Source: Escherichia coli
GTDB lineage: Bacteria; Pseudomonadota; Gammaproteobacteria; Enterobacterales; Enterobacteriaceae
Assembly (NCBI RefSeq): GCF_003334255.1
Contig: NZ_QOWU01000255.1
Reading direction: 5' to 3' (one strand)
DNA length: 353 nucleotides
Shown: piece by piece, positions 13 through 353 of the stretch
How the letters are laid out: each line of letters opens with the position of its first letter
Numbering within the stretch: position 1 is the stretch's first letter
Notes under the pieces: generated by a model
What the model saw: only the letters and a program-made list of their open reading frames with translations
Database searches by the model: none
Told to the model about the DNA's origin: nothing
Made by a program: the position numbers and the translations under genes

Positions 13-153
13 CTACTGCTTACACTGTAAGAACGCCGCAAACTCCGCTCCCCACAAATTCAGCCGGAACTCACACAGCGAACCGTGTAACATCCAGATG
101 GTGAAGATTACCGTCATGCAAATTGTGACGGTGATAAGCGATTTTTGCGACAT
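13..153 (-). CDS. Hok/Gef-family type I toxin (small host-killing membrane peptide, HokA-like), 46 aa
   Basis: Minus-strand ORF from ATG (plus 153-151) to TAG (plus 15-13), translating to MSQKSLITVTICMTVIFTIWMLHGSLCEFRLNLWGAEFAAFLQCKQ. It has the Hok/Gef hallmarks: a short polar N-terminus, one hydrophobic transmembrane stretch (LITVTICMTVIFTIWML), the conserved SLCE motif, and an E-x-AAF C-terminal motif with a Cys near the end. From memory it aligns best with E. coli HokA (...FTWMIRDSLCELHIKQESYELAAFLACKLKE); I cannot assign a specific paralog, so no symbol is given. AGGAGG sits 8 nt upstream of the ATG. Confidence 0.9.
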   Translation of the reverse strand: MSQKSLITVTICMTVIFTIWMLHGSLCEFRLNLWGAEFAAFLQCKQ

Positions 154-158
154 AGCGC

Positions 159-187
159 TTGCCTCCTGAGTGGAGAGGCGCTAACCT
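159..187 (+). promoter_or_regulatory. Candidate promoter for the Sok-like antisense RNA (-35 TTGCCT, -10 TAACCT)
   Basis: Plus strand has TTGCCT at 159-164, a 17-nt spacer, and TAACCT at 182-187, which would start transcription near 194. The -10 matches consensus only at the conserved T1, A2 and T6 positions. It is the best-placed candidate upstream of the 213-250 hairpin, but weak. Confidence 0.25.
162..167 (-). promoter_or_regulatory. Shine-Dalgarno sequence (AGGAGG) of the hok-family toxin gene
   Basis: Plus-strand CCTCCT at 162-167 is AGGAGG on the minus strand, followed by 8 nt (CAAGCGCT) and then the ATG at 153-151. This is a perfect core SD with a canonical spacer. Confidence 0.8.
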
Positions 188-193
188 TCTACT

Positions 194-253
194 TGTCAAG
201 GAAAGAAGTGTCAGGGCCTCGGGTTAACGTTAAAGTTGACTCGGGGCCTTTCC
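194..253 (+). ncRNA. Candidate Sok-like antisense RNA (type I antitoxin), about 60 nt
   Basis: Plus-strand transcript antisense to the toxin leader: a ~19-nt 5' tail (194-212), then a 16-bp hairpin (213-228 paired with 235-250, loop GTTAAA), then TTTCC. The helix has 12 Watson-Crick and 4 G:U pairs on the plus-strand RNA; on the minus strand those 4 positions are C-A mismatches. Size and shape (single-stranded tail plus one terminal hairpin) match the roughly 64-nt Sok RNA of plasmid R1. The 5' end is inferred from a weak promoter and the U-tract is short, so both ends are uncertain. Confidence 0.4.
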
Positions 254-307
254 ACATCAGGCCTTCAGGTTCACCTTCCAGCCATCAGCCGAAAGGCACC
301 CGCGCAT

Positions 308-336
308 AATCTACGATTTTTGCCCTGCACGGGCAA
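308..336 (-). promoter_or_regulatory. Candidate sigma70 promoter for the hok-type mRNA (-35 TTGCCC, -10 TAGATT)
   Basis: On the minus strand, -35 TTGCCC (plus 336-331) and -10 TAGATT (plus 313-308) are separated by 17 nt, with a T6 run just upstream. The predicted start at about plus 300-301 gives a leader of ~150 nt, similar to hok of R1. The downstream RNA would begin GGGUGCCUUUCGGCUGAUGG, which resembles the R1 hok mRNA 5' end as I recall it (GGCGCUUGAGGCUUUCUGCCUCAUGACGUGAAGGUGG). Hexamer matches are only moderate. Confidence 0.35.
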
Positions 337-353
337 CAAAAAACCCGCCATCA

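Follow-up and report, generated by a model that had tools for sequence, protein, structure and literature searches.

A prophage-borne hok/sok-type locus of Escherichia coli that probably operates without a mok gene

The window analyzed here, a stretch of 353 bp from Escherichia coli contig NZ_QOWU01000255.1, carries on its minus strand a prophage-borne type I toxin-antitoxin (TA) locus of the hok/sok type. It consists of a gene for a short Hok toxin, a leader with RNA elements known from this family and, on the opposite strand, a predicted Sok antisense RNA (Table 1). The hok/sok system is the textbook case of antisense control that acts indirectly, via an open reading frame (ORF) in the leader, mok. 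An earlier note on this DNA correctly identified the locus as hok/sok-type. It drew attention to a mok-like frame that is open across the toxin start, and offered two explanations for the lack of a canonical start codon: either mok uses a non-canonical start, or coupling has been lost and the toxin depends on its own AGGAGG site. We consider it probable that the locus is functional and has no mok gene, and that the 50-codon open frame has arisen as a side effect of other constraints.

The 46-residue ORF (MSQKSLITVTICMTVIFTIWMLHGSLCEFRLNLWGAEFAAFLQCKQ) codes for a Hok/Gef toxin, as is evident from its matches to Pfam PF01848 (HOK_GEF, E = 4.7e-8) and to PHROG 251 (E = 2.8e-24). RefSeq annotates the product as "Hok/Gef family protein" (WP_000078907.1). 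The nearest toxin is HokA (43% identity), which is also the best NCBIfam match; the score (38.4 bits) does not reach the cut-off of the HokA equivalog NF007290 (89 bits). Nothing on this 46-residue Hok protein was found in the literature searched, nor were experiments on toxicity, Sok antidote activity, 3' processing or RNase III cleavage for this locus. Judged from codon substitutions, Hok is under purifying selection: the ratio of nonsynonymous to synonymous substitution rates (dN/dS) is 0.14-0.41 when compared to divergent relatives (types with 39-76% amino acid identity), and the toxin is intact in nearly all variants. At the position of its Shine-Dalgarno (SD) sequence, relatives have AAGGAG, AGGAGA or AAGGAGT. 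Three phage records (L003, L004 and L005) name the 46-residue ORF "MokW-like host killing". We rejected this label as a sign of a Mok protein, as it is only the name of PHROG 251 and the labelled ORF is the toxin itself. In three loci (L046, L056 and L142), an extra G in a GTGGGGAG run near the Hok C-terminus (homologous to window positions of about 66-72) shifts the Hok frame to ...WGGGVCGVLTV. Two further loci (L100 and L124) have no full-length Hok ORF; their sole ORF begins at an internal Met and passes the normal stop. All these copies may be pseudogenes or slippage variants.

The complete window is found with 100% identity in eight complete E. coli genomes. Homologues (with roughly at least 80% identity) are present in 1553 of 5426 complete E. 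coli genomes (29%), at 1977 places with up to seven per genome, almost always on the chromosome. In strain G1/2, the window is located inside a prophage, downstream of tail-fibre genes, with an Ail/Lom outer-membrane gene on one side and small hypothetical genes on the other. The same locus occurs in 198 phage records; most are from Stx-converting phages, among them 933W, and P2-like Xuanwuvirus phages, for example P88, are also represented. In 933W/Stx-like prophages, the window locus adjoins lom; P2-like prophages carry relatives.

Translation of 229..71 on the minus strand gives an Arg codon, a stop, 50 sense codons and a stop. This confirms that the mok-like frame is bounded by TAA (226-224) and TGA (73-71), that the hok ATG occupies codon positions 2-3-1 (...CGC TAT GTC...) and that no ATG or GTG precedes hok in this frame, in which CTG (214-212) and TTG (199-197) are found as had been described. 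The frame had been reported to be open for 51 codons. While the open stretch (223..74) is as described, this figure counts the stop, and there are 50 sense codons plus TGA (73-71). The frame product was considered as a known protein, but it does not match any NCBIfam or PHROG family.

The length of the open frame is no more than chance allows. When the 148-nt leader is shuffled with its dinucleotides preserved, 37% of the trials leave the 23 codons upstream of hok free of stops, and 92% of random synonymous Hok recodings do so for the 27 codons inside hok. The chance of about 9% that had been estimated previously is too low and overstates the rarity of such a frame. In this phase, a stop requires a codon that ends in T, followed by a codon that begins with AA, AG or GA. 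The latter codons specify Asn, Lys, Ser, Arg, Asp and Glu, which are few in the largely hydrophobic Hok. It is because such stop-forming codon pairs are rare in a hydrophobic peptide that the frame stays open inside hok and that the former estimate was too low. Upstream, the remaining two frames are shut by TAG 191-189 and TAG 183-181, just before the hok SD. These triplets coincide with the predicted Sok start and with the -10 box of its promoter (AGGTTA on the minus strand), and the one at 183-181 is invariant. With both other frames shut, no frame but the claimed one could be open over the 181-191 block, which would account for its being open upstream of hok. A ribosome arriving in either TAG-closed frame would stop before the hok SD.

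The phase of the frame relative to hok had been taken as its main support. The phase is indeed that of R1: an intact R1-type copy shows a distance of 58 nt from the mok ATG (116) to the hok ATG (174), in agreement with PMC9841398. This match carries little weight, however, because at least two of the three phases occur within the hok family. In K-12, mokB starts 58 nt upstream of hokB and is out of frame with it, whereas mokC and mokA are in frame with their hok.

The frame was followed through 96 loci with 62 unique leader variants, which represent several Hok subtypes sharing down to 39% identity. This ortholog set was drawn from two IMG/VR DNA pattern scans plus phage and E. coli records. 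The first scan was keyed on a Hok coding motif and hence was blind to the leader; the second was keyed on conserved leader blocks. With the hok ATG in position 2-3-1, 34 of the 62 variants (56 loci) have a stop in the interval from the GAGG box to the hok ATG. The closing stop is, among others, TAA at -46 (14 variants), TAG at -31 (11) or TGA at -19 (4). In six variants (8 loci), of which the window type is one, the frame extends open to the GAGG box with no ATG or GTG. The other 22 variants (32 loci) are open further, to an ATG or GTG 100-130 nt upstream; about one-third would be expected to be so with random indels. None of the 62 variants has an ATG or GTG in this phase after the GAGG box. 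The spacing between GAGGCCCT and the hok ATG varies from 56 to 61 nt, with all residues modulo 3 represented. Even a locus with 99.7% identity to the window (L038) has a 1-nt deletion within the frame, and the common 933W type, with two 1-nt insertions, is closed by a TAG at -31. Stops and frameshifts are thus found freely in this frame, which speaks against a conserved mok. The explanation without mok coupling, in which the toxin uses its own AGGAGG site, fits these data.

When the leader is aligned to those of R1, hokB and hokC, no start codon is found after the GAGG box of the window. Where R1 has its mok ATG, 7 nt after GAGG, the window has ACT; at the distance found in R1 and mokB, which is 58 nt before the hok ATG, its codon is ACA. 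A scan with one genome per species was keyed on the block downstream of the GAGG box and the disputed region (AGGTTAGCGCCTC...GGAG). It returned mostly chance matches, with only six true homologues among 87 loci, from Escherichia, Citrobacter and a few contigs of metagenome-assembled genomes. Copies from E. albertii and Citrobacter likewise have neither ATG nor GTG in this phase downstream of GAGG. Annotation of the open frame as a gene is not warranted.

The nature of the two candidate start codons is clarified by the region in which they lie. Between GAGGCCCT and AAGT, the leader contains a cassette of 15-19 nt that is rich in indels and has invariant flanks; 28 distinct versions exist among the 96 loci. 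A YUNR motif is kept near the 3' end of the cassette in 25 of the 28 versions. YUNR U-turn loops are reportedly (Franch et al. 1999) a feature of antisense-target recognition in hok mRNAs. In the window, this motif is UUGA (199-196), and the TTG candidate is its UUG. Relatives read UUAA, UUAG, UUCG, UUCA, CUAG or CUCG at the YUNR site, and the triplet at the position of the TTG is TAA in 14 variants and TAG in two. The CTG candidate is separated from GAGG by just 2 nt and is CTA in 50 of 59 aligned sequences (column 91). The diversification of the cassette, which also constitutes the 5' tail of Sok, looks like a means to keep each Sok specific to its own target.

These data bear on the first of the two explanations, according to which this allele has a real mok that starts at CTG or TTG, with its ribosomes opening the hok initiation region as in R1. 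It can be held in its favor that the open frame runs from 223 across the hok start in the phase of R1 and mokB, that the GAGG box is conserved, and that R1 requires translation up to the hok SD (PMC9841398). Nevertheless, we regard this as highly improbable. The CTG is a mere 2 nt from GAGG and is replaced in most relatives, while the TTG has no purine-rich site upstream, is part of the YUNR loop and corresponds to a stop in 16 variants. In addition, the frame is closed in most orthologs, including the common 933W type, and its openness is at chance level.

Cassettes are combined in mosaic fashion with various leaders and Hok types, and genomes hold up to seven copies. One IMG/VR contig (L066) has two tandem hok/sok loci (at about 4318-4671 and 5040-5395), at a distance of about 720 bp. 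The Hok protein is the same in both, and the Sok-target cassettes differ (AACCCATCTACCTCGC and AACACTTCCTACCGTGAC).

Translation of the leader might also affect hok without any overlap of the two frames. An upstream 22-codon ORF (ATG 257-255, with a weak AAGG site) could code for a leader peptide, and termination about 36 nt before the hok ATG could unfold the anti-SD and activate hok. The ATG of this ORF is invariant in 59 aligned Escherichia-type sequences, and the ORF reads into hok in 11 of these. It crosses the Sok target, so that Sok could block it. However, in the 59 relatives its stop varies between -81 and +134, counted from the hok ATG, the 933W type stops after eight codons inside the hairpin loop, and the ATG is AAG in Citrobacter braakii. 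The ATG adjoins the ucb box, and its invariance may reflect a structural constraint on that box. A regulatory role of this ORF is thus considered unlikely.

In contrast to the frame, the RNA elements of the family are kept. A consensus fold was made from 59 unique full-length mRNAs. It shows the tac-fbi pairing of the 5' end with the 3' end (columns 1-21 with 348-375); fbi is located about 60 nt past the hok stop and thus outside the window (it was observed in locus L001). The changes in tac-fbi are mostly one-sided G-U replacements, with both sides changed in three sequences at pair 18:351. The 3' hairpin shows compensatory changes, both sides being altered in 26-27 sequences at two pairs. 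In the consensus fold, a stem formed by GAGGC-CUAAC and GUUAG-GCCUC encloses the variable cassette as its loop. The tac, fbi and ucb elements, the 3' hairpin and Sok are conserved from E. coli to Citrobacter. The Rfam model RF01794 (sok) matches the hok-sense strand at 301..142 (-) over the full model length (41.0 bits, E = 4.6e-8), which does not reach its gathering score of 59. The RF01794 consensus ends in the hok AUG, so this "sok" model in practice describes the hok leader and not the antisense RNA.

A cis-antisense RNA with the architecture of Sok is predicted to run over the leader. The corresponding region (window 193-258, plus strand) folds with -30.7 kcal/mol (z = -5.68), and none of 200 shuffles is as stable. 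The promoters of hok and sok were assigned by position and conservation only. A scan of the window with strict consensus promoter and terminator patterns found nothing, the putative sok promoter being under the threshold. The sok promoter of R1 has TTGCGC and TATCCT, separated by 17 nt. In the clade to which the window belongs, AGGTTA, the reverse complement of the putative sok -10 box TAACCT, is invariant and sits where the R1 sok promoter would be. At the -10 position of the putative hok promoter, TAGATT, TAGAAT or TAGAGT is found in E. coli, E. albertii and Citrobacter.

The earlier note had likened the locus to chromosomal hok copies, which are often degenerate. This comparison does not fit, given that the locus is prophage-borne and widespread, has kept the RNA elements of the family and has a toxin with the dN/dS range given above. 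A decaying, non-functional remnant, in which mok is lost and Hok is no longer expressed, would be in line with the known inactivation of chromosomal hok loci in K-12 (PMC1635323), with the frameshifts in the G run near the Hok C-terminus of some relatives, and with the empty promoter scans. We consider it improbable, since Hok is intact in nearly all variants and is conserved as a protein even between types with 39-76% identity. Furthermore, Sok and the mRNA elements tac, fbi, ucb and 3' hairpin, the last with compensatory changes, are maintained from E. coli to Citrobacter, the Sok-target cassette diversifies yet retains its YUNR motif, and 29% of the complete E. coli genomes contain the locus, as do many Stx and P2-like phages.

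How such a locus might be regulated was addressed by partition-function folding of the 59 mRNAs. Each was folded as full-length mRNA, as truncated mRNA (with the 3' end set just after the 3' hairpin) and as truncated mRNA with the Sok target blocked. The mean probability of the hok SD being unpaired is 0.007, 0.108 and 0.006, respectively. The mean probability of the GAGGC:GCCUC helix rises from 0.003 (full-length) to 0.60 (truncated). For the window alone, the hok SD is unpaired with a probability of 0.01, 0.10 and 0.00, and the helix has 0.02 (full-length) and 0.52 (truncated). The SD and the helix shift in the same direction in all 59 sequences. A tac-ucb stem is found in the minimum free energy (MFE) folds of truncated mRNAs, and the alternative pairing of GCCUC with the hok SD appears in constrained folds. 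When R1 was folded as a control, blocking of the Sok target was without effect (SD 0.25 in both states), and the hok ATG was fully paired (0.00). Both results fit the known dependence of R1 on mok (PMC9841398). The models suggest that the RNA switch of the family is intact in the window clade and acts directly on the hok SD, with no leader ORF needed.

A relay of alternative pairings may be envisaged. In the full-length mRNA, tac-fbi pairing would bury GAGGC, and GCCUC would then sequester the hok SD. Upon trimming of the 3' end, tac would pair with ucb, and GAGGC with GCCUC, which would present the variable YUNR loop. In the truncated mRNA, the hok SD would be partly accessible, and Hok could be translated from its own AGGAGG site. 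Binding of Sok to the loop and the GAGGC arm would send GCCUC back to the SD; cleavage by RNase III presumably follows, by analogy with R1. The GAGG box would be kept as an element of RNA structure and not as a ribosome binding site. It would pair with ucb or with GCCUC, and would constitute one arm of the complement of the Sok terminator stem. According to these models, Hok is probably controlled through RNA folding and the Sok antisense RNA alone.

Several points weigh against this interpretation. In the 22 variants with a far-upstream ATG or GTG, the leader could be translated through to hok, although their share is at chance level. Even without a conserved ORF, the open frame of this particular allele may still be translated, with initiation at CTG or TTG being possible from its sequence. 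In the folding models, the truncated 3' end and the ends of Sok were assumed by analogy with R1. The 59 sequences are closely related, so that 59 of 59 does not represent 59 independent tests. For the active form, the SD is predicted to be poorly accessible (0.10 in the window), and the MFE fold of the window keeps the SD paired. Finally, the columns of the GAGGC:GCCUC and anti-SD:SD helices are invariant or vary only by G-U, so that covariation neither supports nor refutes these helices.

Table 1. Features of the 353-bp window, with positions counted from its first letter.
Feature	Position	Strand	Basis
hok toxin ORF, 46 aa (MSQKSLITVTICMTVIFTIWMLHGSLCEFRLNLWGAEFAAFLQCKQ), ATG 153-151, stop TAG 15-13	13..153	-	ORF list, profile matches
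hok Shine-Dalgarno AGGAGG, 8 nt upstream of ATG	162..167	-	read from sequence
mok-like frame, 50 sense codons + TGA, judged not a gene	71..223	-	translation, chance tests, orthologs, family searches
GCCUC box, matches R1 dcb; predicted to pair with GAGGC (220-216) or hok SD	175..179	-	invariant in 59 sequences
Hypervariable Sok-target cassette, predicted loop of GAGGC:GCCUC stem, holds CTG and TTG	194..213	-	alignment columns 90-108
GAGGC box, positional homologue of R1 mok SD, no start codon after it	216..220	-	leader comparison with R1, hokB, hokC; invariant in clade
ucb-like box GGAAAGGCCCC, complementary to 5' end (tac)	243..253	-	invariant columns; predicted tac-ucb stem
Upstream 22-codon ORF, ATG 257-255 to TAG 191-189, not conserved	189..257	-	ORF list
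Predicted hok mRNA 5' end and tac (GGGUGCCUUUCGGCUGA)	285..301	-	Rfam sok model start at 301; consensus fold
Putative hok promoter TTGCCC (336-331), 17-nt spacer, TAGATT (313-308)	308..336	-	read from sequence; inferred
Putative sok promoter TTGCCT (159-164), 17-nt spacer, TAACCT (182-187)	159..187	+	analogy with R1
Predicted Sok antisense RNA: single-stranded 5' tail of about 15 nt, 16-bp hairpin (213-228/235-250), UUU	194..253	+	fold; ends inferred
3' half of terminator of upstream lom/Ail gene (GGCGGGTTTTTTG)	335..353	-	sequence; lom/Ail coding sequence ends just upstream in locus L001

Two observations concern the borders of the locus. A match to Rfam "Hrs1" at window positions 335-353 (13 bits, E = 5.6) was dismissed as spurious, as it merely reflects an A-run plus CCCGCC. 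At the other end, beyond the window, the annotated start of the next gene in locus L001 (position 3956, about 57 nt past the hok stop) is an ATG within fbi (CCGATATGGCACCC). This gene codes for a 133-residue hypothetical protein (WP_016232705.1). Either its start overlaps the 3' end of the hok mRNA, or the start is mis-called.

It is tempting to extend this interpretation to the whole hok/sok clade of Stx/933W-like and P2-like prophages, which is present in about 29% of the complete E. coli genomes. The entire clade would be devoid of mok, with GAGGC re-used as an anti-anti-SD; trimming and Sok would switch the hok SD via the relay of GAGGC, GCCUC and SD, and the cassettes of 15-19 nt would diversify to provide specificity among co-resident Sok RNAs. 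We put this forward only as a tentative proposal, which we find possible but on balance rather doubtful. A description of mok-less hok loci was not found in the literature searched; the older alignments of hok leaders lay outside this search. Leaders of the hok family have reportedly been aligned by Pedersen and Gerdes (1999) and by Gultyaev et al. (1997). In a survey published as a preprint in 2026, the prediction of Mok in homologues was called "not trivial" and was left aside.

If the proposal is true, translational coupling is not obligatory in the hok/sok design, and the conserved "mok SD" box is primarily an element of a structural switch. This would affect the annotation of hok homologues, where "MokW-like" is now attached to the Hok ORF, as well as the way in which agents that mimic or counteract Sok act on the prophage copies of enterohaemorrhagic E. 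coli. It would also bear on the evolution of type I TA regulation. Direct sequestration of the SD is common in other type I systems, so that a mok-less locus is not very surprising.

The closest well-studied system is hok/mok/sok (parB) of plasmid R1. It was compared using an intact R1-type plasmid copy (L011), another copy (L008) being interrupted by IS150. Shared features are the Hok/Gef toxin, the tac/fbi pairing of the mRNA ends, the ucb box, the GCCUC (dcb-like) box, a GAGG box that precedes the hok ATG by about 63-65 nt, the 2-3-1 phase of mok, which is also that of the claimed frame, and a cis-antisense Sok, predicted in the case of the window, in which a 5' tail is joined to a terminator hairpin. 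The predicted GAGGC:GCCUC stem corresponds to the "mok SD/dcb stem" of the truncated R1 mRNA (PMC9841398). In R1, GAGG (105-108) is followed by the mok ATG (116), and translation of mok up to the hok SD is mandatory (PMC9841398). While R1 thus has an ATG 7 nt after GAGG and a 70-codon mok, the window has no start codon after GAGG, and its frame is not conserved. According to the folding models, blocking of the Sok target lowers the accessibility of the hok SD in the window clade but not in R1. The R1 Hok has 52 residues, compared to 46 in the window, and the two share 28% identity.

The K-12 loci hokB/mokB/sokB, hokC/mokC/sokC and hokA/mokA belong to the same family and have the same leader layout as the window. 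They differ in having an annotated mok with an ATG after the GAGG box, and the window clade resides in prophages. In the K-12 hokE leader (L010), no mok is annotated, and the GGGG box is not followed by an ATG; inspection by eye revealed an in-frame ATG 39 nt upstream (GGATGGTAG...). The mok status may thus be uneven across the family.

A prophage-borne hok/sok locus in the same kind of Stx phage is hokW-sokW of the Stx2 prophage Sp5. It was experimentally characterized as a type I TA system that is partly dependent on RNase III and Hfq and that aids lysis after induction (Takada et al. 2021, PMC8621323). A mokW was not examined in that study. The published primers rule out that the window is hokW: HokW has 51 residues, is HokC-like and starts with MKQQKAM (ATGAAGCAGCAAAAGGCGATG; leader GCGGGTGCTTGAGGCTATCTGCC). 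The hokW leader, as deduced from the primers, begins with GCGGGTGCTTGAGGC, so that hokW-sokW is a separate locus.

With respect to its proposed logic, the window locus resembles aapA/IsoA from Helicobacter pylori, a type I system without a leader ORF. As modelled for the window, aapA/IsoA has an inert full-length mRNA with paired 5' and 3' ends, activation by 3' trimming, and direct sequestration of the SD. The contrast between R1-type systems and those devoid of a leader ORF has been drawn previously (PMC9841398). The toxin and RNA sequences of aapA/IsoA are unrelated, and the likeness is one of mechanism only, which for the window locus is inferred. By its toxin, antisense RNA and mRNA architecture, the window locus belongs to the hok/sok family, and it departs from R1 in one defining feature, the mok frame.

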